Source: an uncultured Acidobacteriota bacterium (GTDB lineage: Bacteria; Acidobacteriota; Vicinamibacteria; Vicinamibacterales; CAVVIG01). From it: a stretch of 64,000 bases of DNA. Position numbers and translations under genes: made by a program. The DNA lies in assembly GCA_963821285.1 (NCBI GenBank), contig CAWGDD010000007.1:148436-212435 (forward strand). Direction: 5' to 3'. Of the stretch, positions 765-52,456 are shown piece by piece (within the stretch, counting starts at the first letter, position 1; every line of letters starts with the position of its first letter). The notes below the pieces were generated by a model. It saw nothing but the letters and a program-made list of their open reading frames with translations, was not told where the DNA came from and made no database searches.

Positions 765-803
765 GGGGACTGGAGGCTAGGGGCTGGAGTCCCCAGCCCC
801 TAG
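765..803. repeat. 13/14-nt GGGACT(G/A)GAGGCT-type repeat forming a hairpin (ctaggggctgg / ccagcccctag) across the ATPase stop codon
   Basis: Sequence ggggactggaggctaggggctggagtccccagcccctag has an 11-bp stem with a 5-nt loop. gggactggaggct differs at 1 base from the reverse complement of the two copies at 28198-28224. Confidence 0.7.
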
Positions 804-2293
804 TTGTAATACTTCTTCTTCCCCCCGGGGACCTGAAACCCTTCGTCCATCGGCGGTTCCTCGCGGCGCGCCGTGCGGCGGGGCTGAGGCTCGGTCGCCG
901 AGTAGCCGCGCTCGTCGCTGCGGCTGATCTTCTTCTGCGCGTAGAGGCCTTCCAGGACGAAGTCGATCGCGGACGCGATGGCGGGGGCGGTGGCGCCCGC
1001 GGCGACACCGGCCCGCTCCGCCAGCTCGCGGAGGCCCTGCACGCCGTGCGACTGCGTCACGACGTCGTCGGCCGATGATACGTCGCTGAGCGGCAGCGAT
1101 CCGCCGAGGTCGAACCACTCGACGACCGTTCGCGTGTCCTGGCCCTCGAACATGCCGGTGAATACCGCGCCGACCGCCGACCGGATCAGGTCGCGCGCGA
1201 CCTGCTCCGCACCGCGCAGTTCGCCCTCGTACTCGAGCTCGAACTTGCCGGTAATCGACGGGAGCGCCGCCGCGACGTCGGTCACGCGCGGCACGACGAC
1301 CGTCTCGCCGTTCGAGAGCGCCCGCCGTTCGGCGTTCGACACGACGAGCTCGAGCGTGGTGATGGGCAGACGCTGGCTGACACCCGACCGCTTGTCGATC
1401 TTGCGATCGGCGCGGGCCTGGAACGCCACCTCCTCGACCACCTCGCGGACGTAGCCGGGAATTTCGACGCGCAGGCCGCCGGTCCGCTCGGTCCACGCTT
1501 CCTGTCTGGTGATGGCCATCGCGTTGTGGCGCGTCGCCGGGTAGTGCGTGCGGATTTCAGACCCGATGCGGTCCTTGAGCGGCGTGATGATCTTGCCGCG
1601 CGCCGTGTAGTCCTCGGGGTTGGCCGTGAACACGAGCATCACGTCGAGTTTCAGGCGAATCGGGTAGCCTTTGATCTGGACGTCGCCTTCCTGCAGGATG
1701 TTGAACAGGCCGACCTGGATCTTGCCTGCCAGATCGGGCAGTTCGTTGATGGCGAAGATGCCCCGGTTCGCACGGGGGAGCAGGCCGTAGTGCATCGTGA
1801 GCTCGTCGGAGAGGTTCAGGCCGGCTTGCGCGGCCTTGATCGGATCGATGTCGCCGACCATGTCGGCGATCGTCACGTCCGGCGTCGCGAGCTTCTCCAC
1901 GTAGCGCGCCTCGCGGGGCAGCCAGGCGATGGGCATCGCGTCGCCTTCGCGGGCCACCCGCGCGCGGCACGCCGCGCAGAGCGGCGCCAGCGGGTCGTCG
2001 TGGATTTCGCACCCCGGTACCACCGGAATCTGTTCGTCCAGCAGATCGACCAGACCGCGCAGGATGCGGCTCTTGGCCTGGCCGCGCAGTCCCAGGAGGA
2101 TGAAGTTGTGCCGCGACAGGATCGCGTTGACGAGCTGAGGGATGACCGTGTCGTCGTAACCGATGATGCCGGGGAACAGCGTGTCGCCGTTCTGCAGCTT
2201 GCGCATGAGGTTGTCGCGGATTTCCTGCTTCACCGATCGCTTGGGCAGGCGCGCCTGTCGAAGCTCGCCGAGGGTCGCAATTGTGGCCGCCAT
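800..2293 (-). CDS. AAA+ ATPase, Mg-chelatase subunit I (ChlI/BchI)-like
   Basis: 497-aa ORF. Walker A-like GLRGQAKSR, Walker B region [11 protein letters not shown], and ChlI-like blocks [34 protein letters not shown]. Confidence 0.8.
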
Positions 2294-3122
2294 GGGTCGA
2301 TTCTATCCGAACTGGTGCCTCGTGGCTGACGCGCAGCATCCGTTCTTTGCCGCGTCCCGCCCGCTCGTCTTCGCGCATCGCGGCGGAGGCGGGCTCGGCC
2401 CGGAGAACACCATCACGGCGTTTGACACGGCCGTGGCCCTCGGTGCCGACGGCGTCGAGCTCGACGTGCGCCTGTCGAAGGACGGCGTGGTCGTCGTGCA
2501 CCACGATGCGTCGCTCGATCGCACGACGAACACCCGCGGCGGCGTCGACGCGCTCGATGCCGACGAGCTGGCGCGCGTGGACGCCGGCTACTATTTCCGG
2601 CGCGGCTCCAGCTACCCCTACAGGGCGCAGGGCATCGGCGTGCCGACGCTCGCGGCCGTACTTGCGCGCGTCCGCGACGCCCGCGTCATCGTCGAGCTGA
2701 AGCTGAACGCCCCCGAGCTGGCGGCCCTGGCGCTGGACGTCGTGCGGCGGGCCGACGCGGTGGACCGCGTCTGTTTCGGATCGTTCGGCCGGCGCGTCCT
2801 GCGCGCCGCCCGGGCGGCGGAGCCGGCGCTCGCGACGAGCGCGGCGCGCGAGGAAGTCCGCTGGGCGCTCTACCGGTCCTGGTGCCGATGGCCGCATCGC
2901 CGGCCGGCCTACGCGGGCTTCCAGGTGCCCGAGTGGTCGGGCCGCACGCGCGTCGTGTCCCGCCCGTTCGTTGACGCTGCGCATCGGGCCGGCCTCGGCG
3001 TCCAGGTGTGGACCGTTGATACCGAAGACGTCGCCCGCCGGCTGCTCGGCCTGGGCGTCGACGCCCTCATCACCGATCGCCCTGACGTCATCGTTCCCCT
3101 CGTTCGAGGGCTCCGTTCGTAG
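2292..3122 (+). CDS. Glycerophosphodiester phosphodiesterase (GDPD family)
   Basis: From internal Met 44 of ORF 2163..3122: [47 protein letters not shown] (GDPD HR...EN...E.D signature). Its start codon is back-to-back with the ATPase start (ccATGg). Confidence 0.8.
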
Positions 3123-3150
3123 GACCGGACCCCTCGGACCCCTCGGACCT
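3123..3150. repeat. 9-nt tandem repeat (cggacccct x ~3) immediately after the GDPD stop
   Basis: gaccggacccctcggacccctcggacc. Related to the 9-mers at 5022-5068 and 46563-46616. Confidence 0.7.
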
Positions 3151-3218
3151 GTGTTTGTGGTGTGCGATGTCACCGTCTGGTGACTTGCGTGGCGCGGCGA
3201 CCCGATCAATCGTGGCGA

Positions 3219-4188
3219 ATGCAGCCCCCGAGCCTTGACGATGTGCGCGCGGCGTGCGCGCGCGTCTACCCGTTCATCCAACCCACCCCGCTCATGCGGC
3301 ACCCGCTGCTTGAGGCCGAATCCGGGTTGGATCTGCTGGTCAAGCACGAGAACCACAACCCGACCGGCTCGTTCAAGGTCCGCGGCGGCCTGAACCTCGT
3401 CGGACAGCTCTCGCAGGACGAGCGCCGTCGCGGCGTCATCTCCGCGACGACGGGCAATCATGGCCAGTCGATCGCGCTGGCCTGCCAGCGCGAGGGAGTG
3501 ACCGTGCACGATCGTCACGCCCGTGGGCAACAACCCCGAAAAGAACGCCGCCATGCGGGCGTACGGAGCCGACGTCCTCGAGTACGGCCGCGACTTCGAC
3601 GAAGCCCGTGAGCGCGTCGAACAGCTGCAGGCCGAGCGCGGCCTGCGCTATGTGCACTCGGCGAATGAACCGTTGCTCATTGCGGGGGTGGGCACGCTGG
3701 CGCTCGAGTTGTTCGACGCACAGCCGGGTATCGACGTCGTCCTCGTGCCAATCGGCGGCGGGAGCAACGCCTGCGGCTGCTGCATTGTCCGCACGGGGCT
3801 TGGCAGCCGCGCGCAGATCATCGGCGTGCAGGCCGAGGGCTCCGACGCCTTTGCGCGATCGTGGCGCACGGGCTCACGCGTGGTGGGGGAGCGGGCTGCG
3901 ACGTTCGCCGAAGGCCTGGCCACGCGGGTCACCTTCGACCTGACGTTCGAGATCCTTCGGAAGGGACTCGACGACGTGGTGACGCTGACGGAGGCGGAAC
4001 TGGCCGATGGCGTGCGGCTTGCCCTGCGCACCACGCATAATCTGGCCGAAGGCGCCGGCGCCGCGCCGCTCGCCGCTGCGATGAAGCTGCGCGATCGGCT
4101 GGCCGGCCGGCGAGTCGCCTGCGTGATGAGCGGCGGCAACATTGACGCCGCCACGCTCCGCCGCGTGCTCGGAGATCACAACGGTTAA
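3219..4188 (+). pseudogene. PLP-dependent threonine/serine dehydratase, disrupted as assembled by a +1 frameshift near 3502
   Basis: Frame 1 reads ...HENHNPTGSFKVRGGLN...ATTGNHGQSIALACQREGVT. Frame 2 continues CTIVTPVGNNPEKNAAMRAYGADV...SGGNID. Removing one C from gaCCgtg restores REGVTCTIVTPVGNNPEK. Confidence 0.8.
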
Positions 4189-4268
4189 CACAGAGCACGC
4201 GGAGCACACAGAGTCCTGGGATGGATTTCTTGCCAGGAGAACTCGGCGTGCTCTGTGTGCTCTGTGTT
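4187..4268. terminator. ~80-nt imperfect hairpin built from CACAGAGCAC-type repeats between convergent genes
   Basis: aacacagagca(4187-4197) pairs with tgctctgtgtt(4258-4268). Inner pairs are gagcacacagag/ctctgtgtgctc and tcctgg/ccagga. It lies between the dehydratase stop (4188) and the TonB stop (4280). No U-tract. Confidence 0.45.
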
Positions 4269-4279
4269 GTACGTCAGGG

Positions 4280-5018: not shown

Positions 5019-5738
5019 CTACCGAACCTCTGGAACTTCCGGAACCCCTGGAACCTCTAGAACCTCTCGAGCCTTCTTGAACACGTCGCCCAGCATGTCG
5101 GCCGTGAGCTTGCCCGTGTTCGTGTTCTGCCGGCTCGGGTGATAGCAGCCGAAGAGCATCTGTCCGTTCGGCAGGCGATGTCCGACGCCGTGACCGAACG
5201 TGGGACGGGGCTTCAGCACGACGCCGTTCCGCTTGAGCAGCTGCAGGTACGCGTCGAACGCAATCTTCCCGAGCGCGACCACGACCGAGACGCGCGGCAG
5301 CGCGGCGAGCTCCGCGCCGAGATGCGGAAGGCAGCGGGCGATTTCTTCCGGCGTCGGCTTGTTGTCGGGCGGCGCGCAGCGAACCGCCGCCGCGATGAAC
5401 GCATCGTGCAACGTGAGCCCATCGTCGGGGTGCTGCGACGTGCGGATGTTGGCGAAGCCCGCATCGCACAAGCCCGCCATCAGGAAATCGCCCGATCCGC
5501 CGACACCGTCGCCGGTGAACACGCGGCCCGTGCGGTTGGCGCCGTGCGCGGCCGGCGCCAGGCCAACGACGAGCAGCCGCGCGCGTGGATCGCCGAACCC
5601 CGGAACCGGCTTCGCCCAGTACGTGTCGTCGCGGAACGCGCGCCGTTTCTCGATCCCGATGCGCCGGCAGTACGCGCGCAGCCGCGGGCACAACTCGCAG
5701 GACACGATCGCCTCGGAGACATCGGTCAACGTCGTCAT
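5019..5738 (-). CDS. Uracil-DNA glycosylase superfamily protein, family 5 (UdgB)/family 4-like, Fe-S type
   Basis: CELCPRL..., GLAPAAHGANRTGRVFTGD, HPSRQN motifs. The C-terminal tail EVLEVPGVPEVPEVR is encoded by the 9-nt repeat. Confidence 0.75.
   Translation of the reverse strand: MTTLTDVSEAIVSCELCPRLRAYCRRIGIEKRRAFRDDTYWAKPVPGFGDPRARLLVVGLAPAAHGANRTGRVFTGDGVGGSGDFLMAGLCDAGFANIRTSQHPDDGLTLHDAFIAAAVRCAPPDNKPTPEEIARCLPHLGAELAALPRVSVVVALGKIAFDAYLQLLKRNGVVLKPRPTFGHGVGHRLPNGQMLFGCYHPSRQNTNTGKLTADMLGDVFKKAREVLEVPGVPEVPEVR
5022..5068. repeat. 9-nt tandem repeat (GGAACCTCT-like, ~5 units) forming the 3' end of the UDG gene
   Basis: ccgaacctc tggaacttc cggaacccc tggaacctc tagaacctc. Confidence 0.8.
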
Positions 5739-5916: not shown

Positions 5917-8593
5917 GTGCGACACATTTCCCCCAAAGACGCGGCCGATCTCGACGCGACCGAAACACGCGAATGGCTCGATTCCGTTGATTATGTCCTG
6001 CAGAGCGGCGGCCCCGCCAAGGTCGCCCGCCTGCTCCGCGAGCTGACCCAGTACGCCCGGCAGCACGGCGTCAAGCTTCCGTTCACCGCCAACACGCCCT
6101 ACGTCAACACGATTCCGGCCGACGAACAGGCGCTCATGCCGGGCAGCCCCGACGTCGAGCGCCGCATCAAGAGCCTCGTCCGCTGGAACGCCGCCGCGAT
6201 GGTCGTGCGCGCGAACAAGGCGTCGGAAGGAATCGGCGGCCACATCTCGACGTATGCCTCGGCCGCGACGCTGTACGAAGTCGGCTTCAACCACTTCTTC
6301 CGCGGACACGCCTCCGGCGACCCGGATGTGATCTTCTTTCAGGGCCACGCGGCGCCGGGCATCTACGCGCGCGCGTACCTCGAAGGGCGGCTCGACGAAA
6401 CACATCTCGTGAACTTCCGCCGCGAGCTCAAAGACGGCGGCGGCCTTTCGTCGTATCCGCATCCCTGGCTGATGCCCGACTTCTGGGACTATCCGAGCGT
6501 CTCGATGGGGCTGAGCCCCATCATGGCGATCTACCAGGCGCGCTTCATCCGCTACCTCGAGGATCGCGGGCTGAAGGCGAAGTCCGAGACCAAGGTGTGG
6601 GCGTTCCTGGGCGACGGCGAGACCGACGAGCCCGAGTCGCTCGGCGCCATCACGCTGCCCGCGCGCGAGAAGCTCGACAACCTCATCTTCGTCATCAACT
6701 GCAACCTCCAGCGCCTCGACGGCCCCGTTCGCGGCAACGGCCAGATCATCCAGGAACTCGAAGCCGCGTTCCGCGGCGCCGGATGGAACGTGATCAAGGT
6801 CCTCTGGGGACGCGAATGGGATGTGTTGCTCGCGAAGGATCGCGACGGCCTCCTCGTCAAGCGCATGGGCGACATCGTCGACGGCCAGTATCAGAAGTAC
6901 GCCGTCGAATCCGGCGCGTATCTACGCGAGCACTTCTGGGGCGTCGATCCGCGGCTGCTCGAGATGGTCAAGCACCTGAGCGACGACCAGCTCAAGAAGA
7001 TGACCCTCGGCGGCCACGATCCGGTGAAGGTGTACAACGCCTTCAAGGCTGCCGTGGAACACAAGGGCGCGCCGACCGTCATCCTCGCCCGGACCATCAA
7101 GGGCTACGGCCTCGGCGAAGCCGGTGAGGGCAAGAACATCACGCACCAGCAGAAGAAGCTGAACGAAGACGAGCTTCGCGCCTTTCGTACACGCTTCGGC
7201 GTGCCCATCTCCGACGCCGACATCGGCCACACCCCGTTCTACCGTCCCGCAGAAGACAGCATCGAAACCCGTTACATGCGCGAGCGCCGCACGGCGCTCG
7301 GCGGGTTCGTGCCCGCGCGCAAGGTCCGCAGCGAGGTCGTGCCGGTTCCGGCGCACGAACAGTTCGAGGAGTTCTTCAAGGGCACCGAAGGCCGCAAGGC
7401 CTCGACCACGATGGTGTTCGTGCGGTTGCTGAGCAAGCTCCTGCGCGACAAGGACATCGGCCGGTTGATCGTGCCGATCGTGCCGGACGAGGCGCGCACC
7501 TTCGGCATGGAGGCGCTGTTTCGAGCCGTCGGCATCTACTCCCACGCCGGGCAGGTGTACGAGCCCGTCGACATGGACACGCTCCTGTACTACAAGGAAG
7601 CCTCGGACGGGCAGATTCTCGAGGAAGGCATCAATGAAGCCGGCGCGATGTCGTCCTTCATTGCCGCGGGCACGGCGTACGCCACGCACGGCGTGAACAC
7701 GATTCCCTTCTTCATCTACTACTCGATGTTCGGCTTTCAGCGGATCGGCGACCTGATCTGGGCCGCCGCCGACTCGCGCACGCGAGGTTTCCTCCTCGGC
7801 GGGACCGCCGGGCGCACCACCCTGGCCGGCGAGGGTCTCCAGCACCAGGACGGCAACAGCCAGCTCTTCGCCCTCGCGTACCCGAATTGCCTGCCGTACG
7901 ACCCGGCGTATGCGTACGAGATGGCGGTCATCATCGAAGACGGCATCCGCCGGATGTACGTCGATCAGGAAAGCGTCTTCTACTACCTGACGGTGATGAA
8001 CGAGCAGTACCGAGATGCCGCCGATGCCGGACGGCGCGCGTGAGGGCATCCTGAAGGGGCTGTACCGCTTCCGCGCCACGTCCACGCCGAAGGCGACGCT
8101 CCGGGCGCAGCTCTTCGGCAGCGGTGCCATCCTGCCCGAAGTGGTCAAGGCGCAGGCCCTCCTCGAATCCGACTACGGCGTCGGCGCCGACGTGTGGAGC
8201 ATCACCAGCTTCGTGCAGCTGTACCGCGACGGCTTCACGGCCGACCGCTGGAATATGCTGCACCCGGGCGAGACGCCGCGCGTGCCGTACGTGACGCAAT
8301 GCGTGAAGGACGCGCCCGGCGTCTTCGTCGCCGCCTCGGACTACGTCAAGGCGCTGCCGCACGCGATCGATCGCTGGCTGCCGCGCCCGCTCGAGACGCT
8401 CGGCACGGACGGCTTCGGCCGCAGCGAGAGCCGCGAGAGCCTGCGAGACTTCTTCGAAGTCGATGCCCGCTACATCGTCGTCGCCACGCTTGGCGCGCTG
8501 GCCCGCGACGGACAGCTCGATGTCGCCGTTGTGCAGAAGGCCATCAAGAGCCTGGGCATCAACCCCGACAAACTGAATCCGGCGGTGTCGTAG
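5917..8593 (+). pseudogene. aceE: Pyruvate dehydrogenase E1 component (homodimeric AceE type), disrupted as assembled by a +1 frameshift at 8011-8014
   Basis: ORF 5917..8043 plus ORF 8015..8593. The junction NEQY|(c)|[18 protein letters not shown] resembles my recollection of AceE. Four bases (cgag) separate tac from atg. Confidence 0.9.
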
Positions 8594-9933: not shown

Positions 9934-11351
9934 TCGCCGTTCAAGTCGTCGTCGTGGGCGGCGGCCCGGGCGGCTACGCCGCCGCGTTTCTCGCGGCCGA
10001 CCTCGGCCTCAAGACCGCACTGATCGATCCCGAGCTCAATCCCGGCGGCGTCTGCGTGTACCGGGGCTGCATCCCGTCCAAGGCGCTCCTGCACGTCGCG
10101 AAGCTTGTCGCCGAAGCGCGCCACGCGAACGCCTGGGGCATCACCTTCAGCGAGCCGACGATCGATCTGGACAAACTGCGCGCGTTCAAGAATCAGGTCG
10201 TCGCGCGCCTGACCGGCGGCACGGGGTTGCTCGCCAAGAGCCGGAAGGTGCAGTACCTGCAGGGGCTTGCATCGATCGAAGATGCGCACACGTTGCGCGT
10301 GAAGCTCGTGTCCGGCGGGGAAGAGACGGTGCAGTTCGAGCATGCGATCCTGGCGACCGGATCGGTGCCGGCCGTGCCGGCGTCGCTCCGCCTGCCTGGA
10401 GGGGATGACCCGCGCGTCATGGACTCGACGGCAGCGTTGAACCTGCCCGCCATCCCGCCATCCCTGCTCGTGGTCGGCGGGGGATACATCGGCCTCGAAC
10501 TCGGCACGGTCTACGCCGCACTCGGCAGCGCCGTCACCGTGGTCGAAATGACGCCAGGCCTGCTGCCCGGCGCCGATCGGGACCTGGTGGACATCCTGGC
10601 CAAAGGCATCGGCAAGACGATGAAGGCCGTGCTGCTCAACACGCGCGTCGTGCAGATGAAGGCCGAGCCAGGCGGAATCCGCGTGACCTTCGACGGCGGA
10701 CAGTCCGGCGACGCGGTGTTCGATCGCGTGCTCGTCGCCGTGGGCCGTCGGCCCAACGCCAGCGTGCCCGGCCTCGACCGCACGCAAGTCAGGCTCGACG
10801 AACGGGGCTTCATCGTCGTGGACGGGCAGATGCGGACGGCCGAGCCGTCGATCTTCGCCATCGGCGACGTCGTGGGCGAGCCGATGCTGGCGCACAAGGC
10901 GTCGCACGAAGGGCGGACGGCCGTCGAAGTCATCGCCGGCCACAAGGCCGTGTTCGAGCCCCAGGCGATTCCCGCTGTCGTGTTCACCGACCCCGAACTG
11001 GCGTGGGCCGGATTGACAGAGGCGCAGGCTCAGGCCGCCGGACGGACGGTGAGCGTGGCGAAGTTTCCGTGGGCGGCGTCAGGCCGCGCGATCACACTCG
11101 ACCGCGTGGACGGCCTCACCAAGCTGCTGATCGATCCGGTGACCGAGCGCATCCTGGGTGTCGGCCTCGTCGGCAGCGGCGCCGGCGAATTGATCGCCGA
11201 GGCCGTCGTGGCGATCGAGATGGGCGCGACCGCGTCGGATCTGAAGCTGTCCATCCACCCGCATCCCACTCTGACCGAGACGCTGATGGAGGCCGCCGAA
11301 GTGTTCTTCGGCCAGGCGACGCACGTCTACAAGCCGAAGCGGCCGTCCTAG
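9930..11351 (+). CDS. lpdA: Dihydrolipoyl dehydrogenase E3
   Basis: VVGGGPGGYAAAF, redox disulfide GGVCVYRGCIPSK, C-terminal HPHPTLTE. ATGA overlap with aceF. Confidence 0.9.
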   Translation: MIAVQVVVVGGGPGGYAAAFLAADLGLKTALIDPELNPGGVCVYRGCIPSKALLHVAKLVAEARHANAWGITFSEPTIDLDKLRAFKNQVVARLTGGTGLLAKSRKVQYLQGLASIEDAHTLRVKLVSGGEETVQFEHAILATGSVPAVPASLRLPGGDDPRVMDSTAALNLPAIPPSLLVVGGGYIGLELGTVYAALGSAVTVVEMTPGLLPGADRDLVDILAKGIGKTMKAVLLNTRVVQMKAEPGGIRVTFDGGQSGDAVFDRVLVAVGRRPNASVPGLDRTQVRLDERGFIVVDGQMRTAEPSIFAIGDVVGEPMLAHKASHEGRTAVEVIAGHKAVFEPQAIPAVVFTDPELAWAGLTEAQAQAAGRTVSVAKFPWAASGRAITLDRVDGLTKLLIDPVTERILGVGLVGSGAGELIAEAVVAIEMGATASDLKLSIHPHPTLTETLMEAAEVFFGQATHVYKPKRPS

Positions 11352-13765: not shown

Positions 13766-15013
13766 CTACCGATGCGTCACCAGCATCAGCACCGTCAGCA
13801 GCACCATCACCACGACCGTCGTCCAGGCGATGGTGTTGAAGCTGCGTGAGTTCGTGTAGCTGCCCATCAGCTCGCGGTCGTTGGTCAGCAGCAGCATGAA
13901 CACGAGCACGAGCGGCAGCACGATGCCGTTGGCCACCTGCGACAGCACCGATACGTAGACGAGCGGCAGCCCCGGCACGAGCAGCACGGCGGCGCCGAGC
14001 ACGATGATCACCGTGTAGAGCCAGTAGAACACCGGCGCCTCGCGGAACTTCTTGTCGAGGCCCGACTCGAAGCCGAGGCCTTCGCACACCGCGTACGCCG
14101 TCGAGATCGGGAGGATCGACGCCGCGAACAGCGAGGCGTTGAAGAGGCCGGCGGCGAAGAGCAGGTAGGCGTACTCGCCGGCGAGCGGCCGGAGGGCCTG
14201 TGCGGCGTCCGCCGCGCTGCCGATGTCGTGATGGCCGTTGGCGTAGAGCGTGGCCGCGCAGGCGACGATGATGAACCACGCGACGATGTCGGTGAAGATG
14301 CACCCGAGGATCACGTCCCACCGTGACGCGGCGTACTGCCTGGCGGTGATGCCCTTCTCGACGATCGAGGCCTGCAGGTAGAACTGCATCCACGGTGCGA
14401 TCGTGGTCCCCACGAGGCCGATCACCATGTAGAGGTAGCCGTAGTTCCGGATCCCCGCCGCTTCGGGCCGCGTCACGGTGGCGAAGGCCGCCGCCTTCCA
14501 GTCCGGATGCGCGAGCAGTCCGGCGATGATGTATGCGACGTAGAACGCCGACGCGGTCAGGAAGATCTTCTCGATGCTGGCATAAGTGCCGCGGACCACG
14601 AGCAGCCAGACGACGAACGCCGCCAGCGGCACCACGATGTACCGCGACAGCCCGAACAGCTCGAGGCTGCTCGCGATGCCCGCGAACTCGGCGACGACGT
14701 TGCCGAAGTTCGTCACGATGAGCGTCACCATCACGATGAACGTCAGCCGGAACCCGAACTCTTCCCGGATGAGATCGCTCAACCCCTTGCCGGTGACGGC
14801 GCCCAGCCGCGACGCCATCTCCTGCACCACGATGAGCGCGATCGTGATCGGGATCATCGTCCAGAGCAGCGAGTAGCCGAACTGCGCGCCGGCCTGGGAG
14901 TACGTGAAGATGCCGCCCGCGTCGTTGTCGACGTTGGCGGTGATGAACCCGGGCCCGATGACGGCCAGCAGGAGCAGCAGCCGGGTCTTCCAGTGCTTCA
15001 GCGTGGACCGCAT
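13766..15013 (-). CDS. NRAMP/SLC11-family transporter with NRMT-like (Mg2+-type) substitutions in the metal site
   Basis: 415 aa. TM1 GPGFITANVDNDAGGIFTYSQAGAQFGY (DAGG in place of DPGN). TM6 GLVGTTIAPWMQFYLQ (T..A-P-W in place of A..M-P-H). Confidence 0.75.
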   Translation of the reverse strand: MRSTLKHWKTRLLLLLAVIGPGFITANVDNDAGGIFTYSQAGAQFGYSLLWTMIPITIALIVVQEMASRLGAVTGKGLSDLIREEFGFRLTFIVMVTLIVTNFGNVVAEFAGIASSLELFGLSRYIVVPLAAFVVWLLVVRGTYASIEKIFLTASAFYVAYIIAGLLAHPDWKAAAFATVTRPEAAGIRNYGYLYMVIGLVGTTIAPWMQFYLQASIVEKGITARQYAASRWDVILGCIFTDIVAWFIIVACAATLYANGHHDIGSAADAAQALRPLAGEYAYLLFAAGLFNASLFAASILPISTAYAVCEGLGFESGLDKKFREAPVFYWLYTVIIVLGAAVLLVPGLPLVYVSVLSQVANGIVLPLVLVFMLLLTNDRELMGSYTNSRSFNTIAWTTVVVMVLLTVLMLVTHR

Positions 15014-15015
15014 GG

Positions 15016-17575: not shown

Positions 17576-17697
17576 GCCGCTCGCCGGCAAAAGCTGCGAG
17601 GTTCGACGGAAGGCTATCCTGCCAGCTTACGCGTTCAGTAAGGTATTGCGGAACGGGTAAGCGGGGGGATCGTATCGGGGGCTGGGGACAGGAGAAC

Positions 17698-19941: not shown

Positions 19942-20370
19942 CTACCGAACGGTAATGCTCCCCTGAAGCCCCGCCACATCGGCCATGATGTGGTCGTGGT
20001 AGCCGCAGATCCGCGCGGTGGTGAGGTTGCCGGTCTGCCGCGACTGGCCGGGGTTGAGGAACCCCGCTTGCGAGATTGCCGGACACTCGGTGTGCTCCGG
20101 GTGCGGGTTGGACTCCATGTCGTGCTGCCGGTTGTCGTTGTTGATGAACGTCACCTGGCTGCCGAGCGGTACGATGATGTCCTTCGGCGTGGCGACGTTG
20201 TTCACGATCGTGATCGTGGTCGTGTTCACGGCGCCCGCCGGGGTCGTCGGCGGAGTCACCGGCGACGGCCCGGCCGGGTTGCTGTTGGTGTTGCTGCTCC
20301 CGCCGCACGCGGCCAGCAGCAGCGCCAGCCCGCACGACGCGAAGAACCCGCCCGCCATCCGTGATCGCAT
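19942..20370 (-). CDS. Lipoprotein with cupredoxin-like domain (possible type-1 Cu ligand set H/C/H/M)
   Basis: Lipobox LLLAAC. VTFINNDNRQHDMESNPHPEHTECPAISQAGFLNPGQSRQTGNLTTARICGYHDHIM. Confidence 0.55.
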   Translation of the reverse strand: MRSRMAGGFFASCGLALLLAACGGSSNTNSNPAGPSPVTPPTTPAGAVNTTTITIVNNVATPKDIIVPLGSQVTFINNDNRQHDMESNPHPEHTECPAISQAGFLNPGQSRQTGNLTTARICGYHDHIMADVAGLQGSITVR

Positions 20371-20390
20371 GATGTCACCCCTGATCGGAA

Positions 20391-20440
20391 CGCGGGGCTG
20401 AAAGCCCCGCGCTACAGTAGTGCGGCCCTTTCAGGGCCGC
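20391..20440 (-). terminator. Two GC-rich stem-loops downstream of the DUF5777-like gene
   Basis: cgcggggctgaaagccccgcg (20391-20411) and gcggccctttcagggccgc (20422-20440). No U-tract. Confidence 0.35.
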
Positions 20441-20449
20441 CGCCAGAGT

Positions 20450-22865: not shown

Positions 22866-24774
22866 TTATCCGGAGACGCCTGCGGGGAGGCTGATGCGGA
22901 TCTCGGTGCCCGTACCGGGTGCGCTGTTCACGCCGATCGTGCCGCCGAGCCCTTCGACGATGTTCTTGGCGATGGCCAGCCCCAGGCCCGTGCCGCTGCG
23001 CTTCGTCGTGAAGTAGGGCTCGAACACCTGGGGCAGGTGAGCCGGGTCGATGCCCGCGCCGCGGTCGGCGATGACGATCGTGACGCGGCCATCCTTCGCC
23101 AGCGTGCTCAGCGTCACAAGCGGCTCGTTGGTCGTGGCTGGTGGCTCGTGGCTCGTGACGGCTGACTGCCGACTGCCGACGGCTGACTGCCGACTGTCGA
23201 CTGCCGACTGCGGACTGCCGACTGCCGGCTGCTGACTGCCGACTGCCGGCTGCTGACTGCCGACTGCCGACTGCTGACTGTCGACGGCATGGCGCGCGTT
23301 GACGAGCATGTTCACGAGTGCAATCCGCAGCCGTTCGGCGTCCGTCGTGACGGGCGCGGCGCCCGGGTCGAGTTCCAGGTGCACGGCGGCACCCGGCCCC
23401 GAGGCCACAGACGCCGCTGCCGACTCGCGGCAGAGCACGTTCAGATCCGCCGGCGCGAGTTCGAAGCGGATGGGCCGCGCGAAGTCGAGGACCTCGTTCA
23501 CGATCCGGTTCAGCCGCTCGACCTCCTCGTCGATGTCGGCCACCGCCTCGCGCATGGCCGCCCGGCTCACGTCCGGCTGGCGCAGCGCGTGCAGCGATCC
23601 CTTGATGATCATCAGCGGGTTCCGCACTTCGTGGGCGATGACGGTGGACAGACGGCCGAGCGACGACAGCCGTTCCTTCTGCGACATCTCGCGCTGGAAG
23701 CGCGCGATCGAGTCCGTCAGGGTGTTGAACGTCGTGGCCAGCAGCTGGGCGTCCTCGTCGTGCCAGCGGCGGCCCTCGCCGACGGCGATCTTGCGCGTCA
23801 GATCGCCGGTGGCGGCCACCTCGCGCATGACGTCGGTGATTGCCGCCAGCGGCCTCGTGATCGTGCGGGCGACCGCGAAGCTGAGGAGCGTCGCGAGCAG
23901 CACGGCGACGATGGCGGTGACGGCGAGACCCGTGTGGATGGCGTCGAGCGAGCGGAGTTGCTCGGTGCGCGATCGCAGGATCAGCGGCCACCGGCGCTGC
24001 GCGGCTCCCGGGCTGCGCCGATCCGAGCGCCAGGGCCAGCGCGACGTACTCGTCGGAGCCGAGCGTCACCGTGGAGACCCCCGAGCCGTGGAGTCGGGCC
24101 GCCAGCGCGTGGTCGTACTCGCGCGGCAGGGTCGTCGTCAGCACATTGGCGCCCACTGCGAAGGCGATGTCGCTGCCGGTAATCGCCTTGAGCTGGCTGG
24201 CCAGTGCGTCGTTGAGGAGGAAGCCCACGCTGACCGACCCTAGAATCTGCGGCTGCGTGAGCCCGATGACGATCGGCACCGTCACCACCTGCAGGATGCC
24301 GTCCGGCTCGGGGAGCAGGTCCACGGTTTCGTGTCCGAGCAGCGCGTCCCGCACGGCGGGCCAGTCGCCCGCGACGAGACCGGCCGGGGCCGAGTCTCCC
24401 AGCGCCGCGAGCACGCGGCCCGTCCCGTTCGTCACGACCAGCAGGTTGGCGGATTTCAGGGGCTCCTGATAGTCGCGGAGGTTGTCTTCGACCGTGGGCG
24501 GATCGTTCGTGAGGACGGCGGCCTTGAGCTTGGGCAGGTCGGCGATGAGCCGGGCCATCACGGTGTAGGTGTCGATGCGGGTCTTGCGAAGCTGGTCGAC
24601 GAGCGCACCGGTGGCGCGGATCTCGCGCTGCAGGGCACTCTCGGCCTCGCGCGTGACCCGCTGGTTGACGACGTAGATCGCGGCGACGATCGAGAGCACC
24701 GCGAGCAGCGCGCTCGCCAGGAAGATTCGTCCCCGGAGGGAGCTGACGAGCGTTGCCCGAAGAACCGCGTTCAT
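22866..24774 (-). pseudogene. Sensor histidine kinase (periplasmic sensor, HAMP, HisKA, HATPase_c), disrupted as assembled by a +1 frameshift near 23990-24012
   Basis: N-terminal frame MNAVLRATLVSSLRGRIFLASALLAVLSIVAAIYVV...LALALGSAQPG. The C-terminal frame continues (QRRWPLILRSRTEQLRSLDAIHTGLAVTAIVAV)LLATLLSFAVARTITRPL...STVIAHEVRNPL...DRGAGI...GTGLGLAI. Confidence 0.85.
23134..23287. repeat. Heptanucleotide tandem repeat, consensus CCGACTG, 22 units (17 core units 23162-23280), in-frame inside the kinase ATP-binding domain
   Basis: Counted units: gtggctg gtggctc gtggctc gtgacgg ctgactg ccgactg ccgacgg ... ctgactg tcgacgg. Translated as SQQSAVG SQQPAVG SQQPAVG SPQSAVD SRQSAVG SRQSAVT between the N box (NMLVNARHAV) and the G1 box (DRGAGI). 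Confidence 0.9.
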
Positions 24775-25502: not shown

Positions 25503-25522
25503 GGGTCCGGTGGACTATCCGA

Positions 25523-35417: not shown

Positions 35418-36080
35418 CTACCAACTCGCCAGGCTCCCTTGCGGCAGCTCGGTCCACCGGTCACGGCCGCGGTACCACAGCGGCTTGCGGCCCGGATACG
35501 CCTTCTTGAACGCCCGATAGTTCGCGCGCAGCCGGTTCGCCCGCGCATCCGACGTGACGATCCGGCGGTGCGGGTAGTCGAGCAGCATGCGTTCGACCTT
35601 CCACACGTTCGTCTCCGCCAGTCTCCAGTCGTACGTGCCCATCTCGCGCGCCACATCGACGACCGCATAGCCCGTCACGCGTCCCGTGAGATCGATGTAC
35701 GGATCGCAATAGCTCCGCGCGAGCGCGCCCGGTGTGGCGAAGACCGGCTTGCGCCCGTGGAGACCCGGATCGCGCGACCGCGCGACGGATCCCCATCGTC
35801 CGCGCTGCTGGTAGACGAAGATGACGTGATCCAGGTGGTCGATCGACTCGAAGCTCAGGAGGAGCGGGGGATAGCCGTTCTGTTCGAGGGCGACCGTCGC
35901 AAACAGCGCCGCCTCGAGGCAATGCGCGCAGCCGTGTTGGAGCACGCCCCTGAAACTGCGCAGTGTCGCGCGCCCTCCCGGCTCGTTGTTGTACGGCAGC
36001 CGGTTTAGATAGTGCTGAACGGCACTGGGCGTGCGGAGCCGCGCGAGCAAGCCGCGCTCTGCACGCGTGAATCTAGTCAT
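35418..36080 (-). CDS. Hypothetical protein (weak papain/transglutaminase-like Cys...His pattern)
   Basis: 220 aa; GCAHCLEAALF ... HLDHVIFVY. The family assignment is only a guess. Confidence 0.35.
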   Translation of the reverse strand: MTRFTRAERGLLARLRTPSAVQHYLNRLPYNNEPGGRATLRSFRGVLQHGCAHCLEAALFATVALEQNGYPPLLLSFESIDHLDHVIFVYQQRGRWGSVARSRDPGLHGRKPVFATPGALARSYCDPYIDLTGRVTGYAVVDVAREMGTYDWRLAETNVWKVERMLLDYPHRRIVTSDARANRLRANYRAFKKAYPGRKPLWYRGRDRWTELPQGSLASW

Positions 36081-36149
36081 CTGGTCATTTAGTCATCTGG
36101 TCATTTCTGTCATCGGAAATGACCAAGTGACCAGATGACTAGATGACTA
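36074..36149. repeat. AT-richer inverted array: tagtcatctggtcatt x2 facing aatgaccagatgacta-like copies (hairpin)
   Basis: Direct copies at 36074-36089 and 36090-36105. The complementary arm is 36117-36149. The left arm holds the start codon of 35418..36080 and the right arm encodes the last 13 codons of 36110..37036. Confidence 0.8.
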
Positions 36150-37036
36150 AATTCATGAAGCCGCGCATTGGCCGTCGGCTTGAGGTCTTCGAGGATGTCT
36201 TTCGGCGTCCACTGGTTGCCGGTGTACATCTTGAGGAGCTTGCCCTCGGCCGAGATGACGGCCGTCCGGAGGTTGTGCGTGATGTCGCGCGGGTCGTTCG
36301 GCGCCCGCGCCACGCTCATGCCGAACCGCGTGGCGAACTTGTCGATGTCGTCGCGATCGCCCGTCAGGAACGTCCAGCGCGTGAGGTCGGCCTCGAGCTC
36401 GAGCGCGTGCTTCTTCAGCACGGGCGGCGTGTCGACGGCCGGGTCGAAGCTCACGGTCACCAGATGCACGTCCTTGAGCGCCGGGTCGTCCTGGAAGTGC
36501 TCCTGCAGCGTGACGAAGTGCCGATCCATCATGGGGCAGAATGTCGGGATGGGGCACTTGGTGTAGATGAACGTGAGCACGACCCTCGATCCGCGAAACG
36601 CCCGGAATGTCTTCTTCTTCCCGTCCTGATCGACAAAGGCCGAATCGGGGACGGTATCCCCGGGCTTCAGGAGCTCGAGGCCGGACGAAGCGGCCGTGGC
36701 CACGATCGTCTCCGGAGGCGCCTGCTCGATCGGGGCTTCCCCGATCCGTTTGACCTTCGTCAGATACGCGTCGTTCTCGACGATGACGAGCGTGCCGTCG
36801 ACGATGTCGCCGGGCTTGACGGCGTTGAGCTCCGCCTTCTCCTTGAACCTGTACGGCATCGTCATCGCCGGCATCAGGCCCTTGATCTCGCCGTGCTTGA
36901 TCGTGGCCTCGCTGCGATCGGGCGTGATCGCGATGACCTGGCCTTCGACCGGAAACGTTCGCTCGGTGGGTTTCGTCCCGCCGCAGGCGGCGACCAGCGC
37001 GGCCAAAACGAAGACGGGAAACGTGCGCCGTTGCAT
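36110..37036 (-). CDS. Lipoprotein with CusF-like Cu(I)-binding domain fused to a SCO1/SenC thioredoxin-fold domain
   Basis: Lipobox LVAAC. HGEIKGLMPAMTMPYRF (CusF-like). VVLTFIYTKCPIPTFCP ... ITHNLRTAVI (SCO-like). Confidence 0.7.
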   Translation of the reverse strand: MQRRTFPVFVLAALVAACGGTKPTERTFPVEGQVIAITPDRSEATIKHGEIKGLMPAMTMPYRFKEKAELNAVKPGDIVDGTLVIVENDAYLTKVKRIGEAPIEQAPPETIVATAASSGLELLKPGDTVPDSAFVDQDGKKKTFRAFRGSRVVLTFIYTKCPIPTFCPMMDRHFVTLQEHFQDDPALKDVHLVTVSFDPAVDTPPVLKKHALELEADLTRWTFLTGDRDDIDKFATRFGMSVARAPNDPRDITHNLRTAVISAEGKLLKMYTGNQWTPKDILEDLKPTANARLHEFSHLVIWSLGHFR

Positions 37037-46529: not shown

Positions 46530-46562
46530 TCAGCGTGAGCTGGCTGGATCCTCGTGGCGCAT

Positions 46563-46616
46563 CGGACCGCTTGGACCTCGTGGCCCCATTGGACCTCTCG
46601 GACCTCTTGGACCTAT
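46563..46616. repeat. 9-nt tandem repeat (GGACCTCTY-like, 6 units) between convergent genes
   Basis: cggaccgct tggacctcg tggccccat tggacctct cggacctct tggacctat. Confidence 0.8.
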
Positions 46617-47557: not shown

Positions 47558-47561
47558 ATGT

Positions 47562-48141: not shown

Positions 48142-48162
48142 GGTTTCAGTTTACAACCTCCC

Positions 48163-49009
48163 TCACCAGCTTGAACCGCCTCCGCCTCCGCCGCTTCCCC
48201 CTCCGCCGAAGCCGCCGAAGCCCCCGCCCCCGCCGCCGAAGCCCCCGAACCCGCCGCCGAAGCCCCCGCCGCCGCGGCGTCCGCCGCCGAAGGACCCCAC
48301 GCCGCTCGACCATCCGCTCCACGGACCCAGGGCCCAGAACGGAAAGCCTCCGCCCCCGCCGCCGCGGCCGATGCGGCTGATGATGAGGATGGCGATGAAG
48401 ATGAGAATCGGCAGGAGCGGCCAGATCGACCCGCCGCCTGGCTGAGCTGTCGCGCTCGCGGGCCACGCCTTCCAGCCGGACCTGCCGGCCGTCGGCAATC
48501 CGGTTGACGATGCGCGAGGTGCCCGCGACGAGGCCGAGGCCATACGAGCCGTTCCGGAATTGCGGCACCATGTACTGGCGGCTCGTTTCGCCGGCGAATC
48601 GATCCGTGATCCAGGGCTCGAGCCCGTACCCGACCTCTACCCAGACTTTCCGCTCCTTGATCGCGAGGAGAATCAGCAGCCCGTTGTCCTTCTCCTTATC
48701 GCCGATGCCCCGGCCGTGGTTCTCGAACATCTTCACGGCGTATTCGCGGATGTCGCCGTAGCCTTCGATGGTCGGGACGGTCGCGACGACGACGATGTCG
48801 CCGCTCGCGGCCTTCAGTGCGCGGCTGAGCTGATCGATCTGCGCGGCGCTTCTGGCGTCGATGACGTGCGCGAAGTCGTTCACGGGCGCGACGAGCTCCG
48901 GCGGCGCGTCGGTGGCATGGAGCGTCGCGTAGAGCAACGAGCAGAGGGCAAAGGGCACAGCGAAACGCACGGCGAGACGCGGCCCGCGGCGGCTCATCGC
49001 GTCTTCCAC
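48163..49009 (-). pseudogene. TPM-domain (YgcG-like) protein with TM and Gly-rich tail, disrupted as assembled by a +1 frameshift near 48445
   Basis: VNDFAHVIDARSAAQIDQLSRALKAASGDIVVVATVPT...LLILLAIKERKVWVEVGYGLE... | QPGGGSIWPLLPILIFIAILIISRIGRGGGGGGF...GGGGSGGGGGGSSW. The start may be Met at 48997. Confidence 0.8.
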
Positions 49010-49737: not shown

Positions 49738-49755
49738 ATGAGTATTATGTAGCGC

Positions 49756-50727: not shown

Positions 50728-50732
50728 TGATC

Positions 50733-50832
50733 ACGACGTGGAACGCAGAGGCCGCAGAGCTCGCGGAGAATCTTCAATCTCTTGTACAGAAAACATCTCT
50801 GCGGGCTCCGCGTTCTCTGCGTTCCACGTCGT
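50733..50832. terminator. 100-nt hairpin with an 18-bp perfect outer stem between convergent genes
   Basis: acgacgtggaacgcagag (50733-50750) pairs with ctctgcgttccacgtcgt (50815-50832). Further inner pairing (gccgcagag/ctctgcgggc) and an AT-richer loop. Confidence 0.55.
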
Positions 50833-50834
50833 TG

Positions 50835-51656
50835 TCAGGCCCCCATCGCGGCGGCCAGCGCGTTGAAGTCCTGCGCCACGACGTCGAAGACTGGATCGGC
50901 GGTGAAGTTCCTCTCGCCGTTGGGCCCTTCCTGAGGACGTGGAACGAACGCCGTCCTGAACCCGACGCCGCGCGCGGCGCGCAGGTCGTTCTGGTGCGCC
51001 GCGACCATCATGAGCTCCGAGGGCTTGAGGCTCAGGAGGTCAGCCGCCGTGAGGTAGACCTCCTTATCGGGCTTGTAGTGCCGCGCGAGCTCGGCGCCGA
51101 GGATCAGGTCCCAGGGCAGCCCGGCGTGTTTGGCCATGTCGGTCATCAGCGACACGTTGCCGTTCGAGAGCGGCGCGATGATGAACTTCTTCTTCAGGCG
51201 CGTGAGGCCGCTCACGGCGTCAGGCCACGGCTTCAGGCGGTGCCAGACGCGGTTCAGGTTGTCGATCTCGGCCTCGCTCAAGCCCTTCACGTTGAAATCG
51301 GCGAGCACTTTGTCGAGCATCATGCGGTGGAGGGCGTCGAGCTTGGTCCAGGGCAGCTCACCCTTGCGGACGCGGTCCATCGCGGGCGCGTAGGCGCCGC
51401 GCCACGCGTCGGCGAACTTTGCCCAGTCGACGGTGAGGCCCTTGGCTTTACCGAGCGCTTCGCCTTCGCTGATGATCGTGCTGCGATAGTCGACCACTGT
51501 GCCGAACGTGTCGAACACGAGCGCCTTCACAGCGCCCAGATCGCGTGCCGTCCGGCTGGCCGTCTGCCCGGCCGCGCCGAGCGGCACCGCCGACAAGGTG
51601 CCTCCGACGATCGCGATGGAACCCGCCTGAAGAAATTCGCGGCGCGTGGCGCTCAT
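50835..51656 (-). CDS. Haloacid dehalogenase type II-like HAD hydrolase with Tat signal peptide
   Basis: MSATRREFLQAGSIAIVGG (twin-arginine signal); LVFDTFGTVVD (DxxGT nucleophile motif); later HAD motifs. Confidence 0.7.
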   Translation of the reverse strand: MSATRREFLQAGSIAIVGGTLSAVPLGAAGQTASRTARDLGAVKALVFDTFGTVVDYRSTIISEGEALGKAKGLTVDWAKFADAWRGAYAPAMDRVRKGELPWTKLDALHRMMLDKVLADFNVKGLSEAEIDNLNRVWHRLKPWPDAVSGLTRLKKKFIIAPLSNGNVSLMTDMAKHAGLPWDLILGAELARHYKPDKEVYLTAADLLSLKPSELMMVAAHQNDLRAARGVGFRTAFVPRPQEGPNGERNFTADPVFDVVAQDFNALAAAMGA

Positions 51657-51666
51657 GCGTGCACTC

Positions 51667-52362
51667 CTATCGCTTGTGCCGTTTCGCTTTGATGGCGGCG
51701 GCCCGTTCGATGACGCCGGCCAGCATGGCGGCCGCTTCGCCGCCCTTGGTCGGCCCCTTGGAGATCCAGATGGCCGGTGTGTCCTCGGCGAGGATATCCT
51801 CGAAGTCGCCGTCGCTCTTCACGCTTTTGGGCGCGAACTCGGTGATGTCGAGATCGCCGGACCACTCGTCGCGGTGCTTGATGAGCAGCCAGCTCCTGCT
51901 GCTGCCCCCCGGCCCGGTCTTCGCGCCGGGCCAGCCCTTGGTCCGGACCAGCACCCACGATCCCTTGAGCTTGTAGCCGTTAAGCGTGAACTTCAGATCA
52001 CCCTTTGCGAGCGCGGCCTCGACGTCGTCGGATTCGGGCGTCCAGGTCCCGCGATCCCAGAGCATCACGATCCCGGCGCCGTATCCCTCGGGGATGACGC
52101 CCTCGAACTCGCCGTACTCGATCGGGTGATCTTCGACGTGCATGGCCAGCCGTTTGGTTTTCGGGTCGAGCGACGGTCCCTTCGGCACGGCCCACGAGAG
52201 CAGGACGCCGTTCAGTTCCAGCCGGAGGTCGTAATGCAGGTGACTGGCCAGGTGCTTCTGCACGCAGAAGAAGAGGGCCTTGCCTTTCTTCTTCGCGACC
52301 TTGCCTTCCGGTTCCGGCGACTTCTTGAAGTCGCGTTTTCGCCGGTATTCCTCTAGGGCCAT
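51667..52362 (-). CDS. Stand-alone DNA ligase D 3'-phosphoesterase (LigD-PE) domain protein
   Basis: FCVQKHLASHLHYDLRLELNGVLLSWAVPKGPSLDPKTKRLAMHVEDHPIEYGEFEGVIPEGYGAG. Confidence 0.8.
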   Translation of the reverse strand: MALEEYRRKRDFKKSPEPEGKVAKKKGKALFFCVQKHLASHLHYDLRLELNGVLLSWAVPKGPSLDPKTKRLAMHVEDHPIEYGEFEGVIPEGYGAGIVMLWDRGTWTPESDDVEAALAKGDLKFTLNGYKLKGSWVLVRTKGWPGAKTGPGGSSRSWLLIKHRDEWSGDLDITEFAPKSVKSDGDFEDILAEDTPAIWISKGPTKGGEAAAMLAGVIERAAAIKAKRHKR

Positions 52363-52380
52363 GGGCGGATCTTAAAATCT

Positions 52381-52456
52381 GGTCATTGGTCATCGGTCAT
52401 TCTGTCATCTCCCTTGGCAATTGCACAACGAGACAGATGCAAATGACAGGACCAAT
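52381..52456. repeat. Heptamer array ggtcatt ggtcatc ggtcatt ctgtcat facing a complementary arm (hairpin), downstream of the POT transporter gene
   Basis: Left arm 52381-52411, right arm gagacagatgcaaatgacaggaccaat 52430-52456. Shares GGTCATT(T)CTGTCATC with 36098-36114. Confidence 0.75.

Follow-up and report, generated by a model that had tools for sequence, protein, structure and literature searches.

Short tandem repeats and palindromes at gene 3' ends in a 64-kb stretch of a Vicinamibacterales-like genome

Many genes in a 64,000-nucleotide (nt) stretch of an uncultured Acidobacteriota bacterium (contig CAWGDD010000007.1, positions 148,436 to 212,435; below, the window) end in or next to short periodic DNA, which raises the question of what these repeats are, how they came to lie there and whether they act on the transcripts. 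An initial annotation, based on the letters of the window, had likened them to a REP/BIME-like system of terminator or mRNA-stabilising hairpins. We find two kinds of element mixed here: direct arrays of 7-, 8- and 9-nt units, and palindromes whose arms consist of such units. It is likely that the window comes from a Vicinamibacterales-like genome rich in fast-changing long simple sequence repeats, which are tolerated mostly at gene 3' ends. Four observations carry this reading. The repeats change length by whole units and are present or absent at orthologous sites; inside genes they grow in a frame-preserving way, and only multiples of three heptamers persist there; one hairpin family has spread over multiple loci; and the repeats are concentrated at stop codons. 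A G bias on the sense strand was observed as well.

Direct arrays and palindromes in the window

Tandem arrays were identified using Tandem Repeats Finder (TRF), and the chance level was taken from 30 dinucleotide shuffles. Based on this analysis, 24 loci of the window score at least 40, compared to 4.4 ± 1.9 in the shuffles, and 13 score at least 50, compared to 1.0. RNA folding energies were expressed as z-scores relative to 200 shuffles. The three longest inverted repeats of the window (4187-4268, 36068-36155 and 50728-50837) fold at -48 to -71 kcal/mol on either strand (z = -8.8 to -10.5), which 0/200 shuffles matched. The elements considered here are the following.

77-136, minus strand: heptamer array (GACTGCC)x8.6 inside the VWA-partner gene (2-754, minus strand); TRF score 78
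755-799, minus strand: 45-nt spacer of 7-nt GGRGNCT-type units, G-rich and then C-rich, with a small 10-bp hairpin
3123-3150 (TRF 3126-3149), plus strand: direct 9-nt array CGGACCCCT x2.7, beginning 3 nt past the GDPD stop codon, upstream of PALP
4187-4268, no strand assigned: long hairpin separating PALP from the convergent TonB gene, with arms of about 31 nt made of 9-nt units (CACAGAGCA/CGCGGAGCA)
5019-5068 (TRF 5024-5067), minus strand: 9-nt array GAGGTTCNN x4.9, which makes up the 15 final codons and the stop of the gene for uracil-DNA glycosylase (UDG)
23122-23285, minus strand: heptamers GGCTCGT x5 and then GACTGCC x17, in the HATPase_c domain of a histidine kinase; TRF score 174
25484-25506, plus strand: GAGGTTA x3.4, overlapping the stop codon of a small 4Fe-4S (Fer4-domain) gene, 17 nt upstream of the next ATG
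28177-28226, no strand assigned: 14-nt (2 x 7) units, GGGACTAGAGGCT on the minus strand, filling the 47-nt spacer between convergent genes
36068-36155, minus strand: palindrome of 8-nt units ATCTRGTC with termini TGAATCT...AGATTCA, at the end of a SCO1/CusF-like gene
46545-46615 (TRF 46545-46614), no strand assigned: direct 9-nt/27-nt array, GGACCTCTT on the plus and GAGGTCCNA on the minus strand, separating a cupin gene from a convergent unknown gene
50728-50837, no strand assigned: largest hairpin, between the convergent CofD and HAD-hydrolase genes; arm made of ACGACGT, GGAACGCAGAG and 9-nt units (NNCGCRGAG)
52380-52407, minus strand: heptamers TGGTCAT x3 (sense ATGACCN), between the stop of a POT/MFS transporter gene and the start of a LigD-phosphoesterase gene

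Each repeat listed in the initial annotation was recovered at, or a few bases from, the position given for it, and both the recurrence of unit families and the location at the 3' ends of genes that converge or point the same way were borne out. The statement that almost every larger gap is filled by such DNA went too far: of the 3' junctions whose spacer measures 25 nt or more, roughly 24 in all, about 10 carry it. The supposed AT-richness holds for the GGTCAT and CAGAG elements only (GC 0.48-0.58), but not for 755-799, 28177-28223 and 46530-46612 (GC 0.65-0.69); the whole window has 67% G+C. That annotation lacked the largest arrays, two intragenic runs of GACTGCC at 23122-23285 (17 copies) and 77-136.

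Genes were called from open reading frames (ORFs) with a codon model trained on the long ORFs of the window, as a sliding codon-score map proved too noisy for non-coding DNA, and 30 called genes were checked with Pfam. No tRNA genes were found in the window, and Rfam gave no match at gathering score there and none at E <= 0.01 in four hairpin-bearing contigs. The nearest homologues of the window's proteins belong to Vicinamibacterales and other Acidobacteriota metagenome bins. Related contigs and loci used for comparison are labelled by L-numbers; three of them, L001-L003 (contigs from ENA and NCBI), are syntenic with the window around the UDG gene, with UDG proteins 88-92% identical.

Errors in the sequencing or assembly of a metagenome bin from long reads could in principle mimic repeats of this kind. 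Several genes of the window are split by frameshifts, namely aceE (708 + 192 amino acids; 7990-8045), the PALP enzyme (3490-3530), the histidine kinase (around 23903) and a long gene (58000-60300). Compared to L002, the breaks in aceE and PALP are single-base insertions (CTC-G to CTCGG; CGG-CAC to CGGTCAC), which suggests long-read indel errors, for which such changes are typical, rather than pseudogenes; many of the related genomes are long-read assemblies as well (contig_N names). However, independent assemblies have these arrays and hairpins at the orthologous sites, short-read contigs (JGI Ga..., k141, NODE) carry them as well, and the tails and loops that they encode are found in protein databases from many samples. 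An artefactual origin is therefore hardly credible.

Position, strand bias and turnover of the direct arrays

In the window, ten arrays overlap a stop codon or lie within 17 nt of one. The analysis of tandem arrays was extended to 58 related high-GC loci (about 1 Mb). This wider sample holds 98 arrays with periods of 5-11 nt, of which 44% lie at most 20 nt from a called stop and 28% near a start, compared to 6% each under random placement, and only 14% lie wholly within coding sequence, compared to 78%. Arrays are found in co-directional (46), convergent (19) and divergent (11) spacers, the last being under-used although they make up 27% of the intergenic length. Many arrays begin 0-8 nt past the stop, as is common in co-directional spacers, or reach to within 0-4 nt of the called start. 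Among the arrays within 10 nt of a stop (n=43), 24 have 7-nt, seven 8-nt and 12 9-nt units.

Several junctions where the first unit contains TAG or TGA gave rise to the idea that arrays are seeded by the stop codon itself (unit = stop plus 4 nt). This idea was dropped, as the unit consensus of the 43 arrays contains a stop triplet about equally often in sense (11/43) and antisense (12/43). One such junction is the convergent spacer at 28177-28226, where the first unit contains the TAG of the 1068-amino-acid gene. Likewise, the stop TGA of the POT/MFS transporter gene (52405-52407) belongs to a degenerate unit of the TGGTCAT array. The GAGGTTA array at 25484-25506 has a TRF score of 32, near chance level.

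The direct arrays remain unstructured (z = +1.3 to -0.6). This holds for 3123-3150 (z = +1.3), 5019-5068, 46545-46615 (z = +1.3 and -0.6), 52380-52404, 25484-25506 and both GACTGCC arrays, so that an action as hairpins is impossible for them. The complementary arms reported for 52381-52456 are weak, the candidate partner arm of the TGGTCAT array (52437-52456) reaching only z = -2.6. The elements at 755-799 and 28177-28226 share 7/14-nt GGGACTAGAGGCT-type units in palindromic arrangement and both fold weakly (-20.3 kcal/mol and z = -2.1 for the former; z = -1.5 and -0.7, not significant, for the latter). The motif GGGACTGGAGGCT of the former (766-778) has two copies in the latter (28199-28225), on the opposite strand as AGCCTCTAGTCCC.

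A further copy of the GGGGCTGGGGAC motif of 755-799, GGGGGCTGGGGACAGGAGAAC, lies at 17670-17697, immediately ahead of a weak ORF, and agrees with the GGGGWSAS motif of the inverted repeats that flank tyrosine transposases (PMC3733652). A tyrosine transposase beside it was considered and rejected, the adjacent ORF having no Pfam match.

Comparing the same intergenic sites in related genomes, as had been suggested for the window, we found elements present, absent or replaced by another unit type. A single junction may be empty or carry different units among genomes with about 90% protein identity. The clearest case is the junction between the AAA-ATPase gene (stop TAG 800-802) and the VWA-partner gene (start ATG 752-754), i.e. 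from KKYYN and the stop to MKYRY. It measures 45 nt in the window (755-799), and 0 nt (TAGATG) in L002 and L005, while L003 and L009 have 80-84 nt made of related units, and other heptamers fill it in about 10 further genomes. Spacer lengths in a set of about 25 genomes range from 0 to more than 84 nt, and about 15 of these genomes carry arrays of differing, mostly G-rich heptamers (GGGATTA, AATTAGG, GGTGGCT, TGAGGCN, GGTTCGT). Examples of filled spacers are L003 (15072-15151), L009, L008, L010, L012, L016, L019, L020, L026, L027 and L064. Between GDPD and PALP, the window has GGACCCCTC x2.7 and L003 has x9 of this unit, whereas L002 has a different 8-nt unit, CTGGTCAT x4. Unit sequences are very diverse overall (115 clusters for 194 arrays); unit families are shared within the window's own clade, whereas genomes further away have other ones.

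Arrays next to a single stop codon are biased towards G on the sense strand (G>C in 30/40, compared to 177:165 for ordinary 35-nt 3' flanks; Fisher p = 0.007). This bias could point to post-transcriptional control, in which G-rich arrays between stop and start would offer multiple Shine-Dalgarno-like or protein-binding sites or, being poor in C, exclude Rho. Such a role would suit the many arrays that directly follow a stop or precede a start, the presence of GAGG, GGAG or AGGA in many units and the repeated refilling of one intercistronic junction with different G-rich heptamers, and a similar one has been proposed for TAACTGA repeats (PMC4679880). Against it stand the extreme diversity of the units, the relatives with a spacer of 0 nt, the arrays in convergent spacers, which lack a downstream cistron, and the array at 3123-3150, which is C-rich on its sense strand. 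In addition, start-codon calls are unreliable, and pairing with the anti-Shine-Dalgarno sequence is not separated from G content as such. We regard this explanation as improbable.

Another possible reading is that of G-quadruplex-forming repeats like GGGAATC of Xanthomonas and GGGGAYT of Nostoc. GGGGACT and GGGGCTG units do occur at 755-799 and 28177-28226, as do GGGATTA, GGGGATT and AGGGATT arrays just past stops in relatives (L012, L034, L040, L048). However, no element of the window has four tracts of at least three G on one strand (755-799 and 28177-28226 have two to three), and most unit families (GGTCAT, GAGGTCC, CGCAGAG, GACTGCC) lack G-tracts, which makes quadruplex formation a very improbable common basis.

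Repeats also enter reading frames, so that the placement between convergent genes or just after a stop, as initially described, does not apply to several of them, including 5019-5068 and the right arm 36116-36155. In-frame units are those without stop triplets, and they form the C-terminal tail of UDG, a loop of the histidine kinase and a loop of the VWA-type protein. The UDG tail reads ...EVLEVPGVPEVPEVR followed by the stop. Across genomes, the array has 0, about 5, 6 or 16 units, with none in L002, 16 in L003 and, in L001, an array located after the TAG; 26/120 UDG homologues end in at least two xV[RQPLG] triplets, in variable number. In L001, in L003 and at 46613 of the window, where the minus-strand gene bordering 46545-46615 ends, the stop is a TAG at the GAG or AAG position of a 9-nt unit, i.e. 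the stop codon floats within the array.

The kinase array at 23122-23285 encodes (QSAVGSR)n in frame. Heptamers are not tied to one reading frame, and (GACTGCC)n thus gives QSAVGSR in any frame. In 120 orthologues, the kinase loop measures 27-69 amino acids, with the series 31/38/45/52 and 30/37/44/51/58, i.e. steps of seven amino acids or three heptamers. The array at 77-136 reads ...SRQAAVSSQQSAVDSPQSAV... and forms a loop of the VWA-partner protein, with 11 units in L003, about seven in L001 and no array in L002.

Other coding repeats were noted in passing. The loop on the ATP-lid side of this histidine kinase family is hypervariable, with at least two types of peptide repeat (QSAVGSR, EPRATSP). 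A 15/21-nt repeat GCCGCCGAAGCCCCCGCCCCC at 48176-48292, 30 nt from the stop inside the ORF at 48146-49009 (minus strand), gives a glycine-rich C-terminal tail of the GGGGF type. An 18-nt repeat CGTCACCAGCACCAGCAC x2.1 at 13775-13820, 9 nt from the stop inside a Nramp-like gene (13766-15013, minus strand), forms a C-terminal repeat tail.

The palindromic elements and their dispersal

Only three of about 12 elements fold better than their shuffles. At 4187-4268, the left arm begins within the PALP stop codon (TAA), and the element folds at -54.8 and -47.7 kcal/mol (z = -8.8 and -9.9); related hairpins occupy the PALP/TonB site in L001 and L003, and a one-arm remnant is left in L002. At 36068-36155, the GGTCAT-type arms measure 40 nt and are 85% complementary (-50.3 kcal/mol, z = -10.2). 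The stop TGA (36110-36112) lies in the loop, and the right arm forms the last 12 codons of the SCO1/CusF-like protein. This 8-nt palindrome type (termini GAATCTRGTCAT...ATGACYAGATTC) is also present at a different junction in L001 and L002. The largest hairpin, 50728-50837, has 42-nt arms with a perfect outer stem of about 19 bp and a TGA at the outer ends on both strands, and folds at -70.7 and -71.0 kcal/mol (z = -9.7 and -10.5). The description of the repeats as hairpins of tandem short units therefore fits these very stable elements and fails for the unfolded direct arrays.

The arms of both 4187-4268 and 50728-50837 are built of 9-nt NNCGCAGAG units, and the two share a common design with the L001 and L003 hairpins: ACGACGT, one variable base, GAACGCAGAG and then 9-nt units. 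Scanning metagenomes with a pattern of 14 specified bases yielded 120 stretches with about 26 true copies (dG -21 to -77 kcal/mol); chance matches dominate such a scan, about one fifth being true elements. A loose regular-expression census of the family was swamped by false positives and discarded, including its unreliable pairing frequencies (0.81 at core versus 0.53 at variable positions), and an nhmmer profile of the arm took its place, which found 62 arms at 39 loci, with 17 inverted pairs. True elements measure 61-125 nt with loops of 8-40 nt, have conserved inverted termini (CACGACGT...ACGTCGTG) and mostly lie with a stop codon within about 50 nt. Flanks are common only to an orthologous trio (50728-50837 of the window, L114 and L137), while contig L196 has two copies. 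Members of this family are thus found at 15 or more junctions with unrelated surroundings in soil metagenomes.

Inspection of 12-nt flanks on 18 copies, whose ends are fuzzy, showed no direct repeat that would mark a target-site duplication, and no tyrosine transposase (RAYT/TIRYT) was present among the 30 window proteins scanned with Pfam, a genome-wide search not having been made. A palindrome varies in presence at the lpd/PadR junction, where a 60-67-nt hairpin of GAACGCAGA-type units is found in L001 (4242-4302) and L003 (4297-4363) and is absent from the window (11348-11351) and L002. The hairpin alters the last lpd codon and brings a new TAG.

These stable hairpins are the part of the data that best suits a dedicated terminator or mRNA-stabiliser system, in which selected RNA hairpins would end or protect transcripts in a genome without U-tract terminators. 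The three hairpins sit exactly between convergent genes or just past a stop, and the metagenome copies show a similar proximity to stops. As initially noted, U-tracts are lacking (by eye, no T-run follows any hairpin), and canonical hairpin-plus-U sites are not enriched (9 versus 9.4 expected, and 6 versus 9.0). Moreover, such a role has been proposed for STRR hairpins (PMC2670836) and REPs (PMC3733652). On the other hand, most elements are unstructured direct arrays, and some elements separate genes of one operon (AAA/VWA) or lie within coding sequence. Among close relatives, a given junction has a hairpin, none or a single arm, and presence that varies, or unit types that are replaced, over such short distances are unlike a conserved terminator system. 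Variable dinucleotides at unit junctions are often mismatched between the arms, so that pairing seems to stem from the shared unit sequence and not from compensatory change, as judged by inspection rather than by a covariation test. As a proposed role, termination or stabilisation fits the hairpins only, and we consider it unlikely as an account of the repeats as a whole. Conventional non-repetitive hairpins are present at 3' ends here as well; behind the DUF5777 gene, 20359-20449 contains two GC-rich stem-loops of the ordinary kind (GCGGGGCTGAAAGCCCCGC, GCGGCCCTTTCAGGGCCGC).

Origin of the repeats and comparison with known systems

Fast-changing long simple sequence repeats tolerated at gene ends remain the likely explanation for the elements. 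Since the arrays change by whole units, their length variation is probably driven by replication slippage or unequal exchange. Some families, most clearly the ACGACGT-GAACGCAGAG hairpin, appear to reach new junctions, probably as small non-autonomous palindromes in the manner of REP, REPIN or MITE elements; template switching would be another route. The 3' location may reflect purifying selection, arrays surviving almost only at the 3' boundary of genes because extra DNA would be least harmful there. An array entering a reading frame would supply either a new stop or a harmless tail or loop. When transcribed, the palindromes are predicted to form very stable U-less hairpins, which may make RNA polymerase pause or hold up 3' exonucleases, effects also suggested for REP (PMC3733652) and STRR (PMC2670836). 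The direct arrays would stay single-stranded and preferentially G-rich on the mRNA strand.

Several points weigh against this explanation. There is no direct evidence for slippage or for any transposase, and the flanks show no target-site duplication. The right end of the lpd/PadR hairpin resembles native sequence, so that growth in situ by inverted duplication fits too. The sense-strand G bias is unexpected for purely neutral junk, as is the refilling of the AAA/VWA junction by different arrays in about 15 of 25 genomes. The home-made codon model leaves starts and some stops approximate. The bias and the refilling could be accommodated if the arrays were a selected, lineage-specific signalling layer at 3' ends and between cistrons, in which U-less hairpins of expandable 9-nt units would set transcript ends, G-rich and C-poor heptamers lying directly between one stop and the following start would tune re-initiation or exclude Rho, and unit number would be a fast-evolving dial. 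If true, this would explain both the refilling by unrelated units and the strand preference, and the hairpin family might be a new self-expanding mobile palindrome; we hold this view to be doubtful.

Vicinamibacterales are abundant and poorly studied soil bacteria, and the gene ends described here are padded with hypervariable 7-9-nt arrays. As repeat DNA makes up stop codons, C-terminal tails and internal loops, the arrays bear on gene calling, and they are relevant to strain typing and to reading variation in protein length. The junction with spacers from 0 to more than 84 nt and the kinase loop growing in steps of seven amino acids are natural experiments, and the hairpin family, if mobile, would be a compact new repeat family for Acidobacteriota.

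Comparing our results to previous studies, the repeat class is already published, and the present elements are a new example and not a new kind of system, such repeats being known from Xanthomonas and cyanobacteria. A literature search found no report of them in Vicinamibacterales or Acidobacteriota. While the initial annotation could match the repeats to no named element, long simple sequence repeats and STRR-like heptamers fit, inverted pairs included (PMC4692102, PMC4679880, PMC2670836). As summarised in later papers, long simple sequence repeats have 5-11-nt units, with heptamers the commonest, and are a feature of large, high-GC genomes; polymerase slippage is held responsible for them (Mrazek, Guo and Shah 2007, via PMC4679880 and PMC4692102). 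Measured against these summaries, the likeness extends to head-to-tail 7-9-nt units beyond chance length (up to 17 copies in the window), the prevalence of heptamers, large, high-GC, free-living genomes, the tolerance of multiple-of-three units in coding sequence and copy numbers that differ by whole units among relatives (UDG tail, GDPD/PALP spacer, kinase loop). The difference from the class as summarised there is that many unit families are found within 64 kb and that several are also palindromic with conserved termini.

Of the hairpin-forming systems, REPs lie within 20 bp of the 3' end of the upstream gene in convergent or co-directional settings, can donate a stop codon and have some in-frame intragenic copies (PMC3733652, Di Nocera et al. 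2013), and REPINs are inverted dimers that fold into hairpins of about 100 nt (PMC3116915, Bertels and Rainey 2011). The initially suggested resemblance to REP/BIME holds in part. As in those systems, small palindromes are dispersed near 3' ends, with two inverted repeats and a spacer giving one long hairpin, and one hairpin family is found in at least 15 unrelated flanking contexts, with two related copies in the window and two on a single contig (L196). However, the arms are not REP units: they consist of tandem 8-9-nt units, with a length that varies by unit number, instead of a self-complementary REP of 20-40 bp. There is also no unpaired GTAG/CGTC tag, the CGTC within ACGTCGT being base-paired in the hairpin. 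Intrinsic (Rho-independent) terminators differ in having a U-tract, which does not directly follow the hairpins here.

STRR heptamers of heterocystous cyanobacteria are 7-bp tandem intergenic units that form hairpins between genes such as hupS/hupL, with a proposed role in transcript stability or translational coupling (PMC2670836). The intergenic heptamer arrays at 52380-52401 and 755-799 are similar, whereas the strong hairpins of the window (36068-36155, 4187-4268, 50728-50837) are made of 8-/9-nt units and not of heptamers. The phylum and base composition differ as well, the nearest proteins and loci being those of Vicinamibacterales/Acidobacteriota and not of heterocystous cyanobacteria. 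One STRR unit is reportedly TTGGTCA (Mazel et al. 1990), which would equal the TGGTCAT array at 52380-52401.

The TAACTGA direct repeats of marine Beggiatoaceae are intergenic heptamers near gene boundaries, found across phyla, with a suspected post-transcriptional role (PMC4679880, MacGregor 2015). They resemble the short heptamer arrays described here in this location, but are of a single unit type and lie mainly just upstream of starts, compared to a stop bias and dozens of unit types in our data.

The GGGAATC repeats of Xanthomonas and GGGGA(C/T)T repeats of Nostoc are found up to about 50 nt from stops, their G-rich strand being the coding strand, and are over-represented in non-coding DNA (PMC4692102, Rehm et al. 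2015). They are rare between divergent genes, frequently form convergent inverted pairs, are transcribed and vary in length and sequence among close species (PMC4692102). Our elements share with them the proximity to stops, the over-representation in non-coding DNA, the coding-strand G bias, the scarcity in divergent spacers, inverted pairs, variation among close relatives and the GGGGACT units of the window, with GGGATTA/GGGGATT in relatives. They differ in that the window elements lack four quadruplex G-tracts, most families have no G-tracts and 8-/9-nt units are equally prominent. After Xanthomonas and Nostoc, this is the third phylum with G-rich heptamers just past stops, which strengthens the case for a general cause of such repeats.

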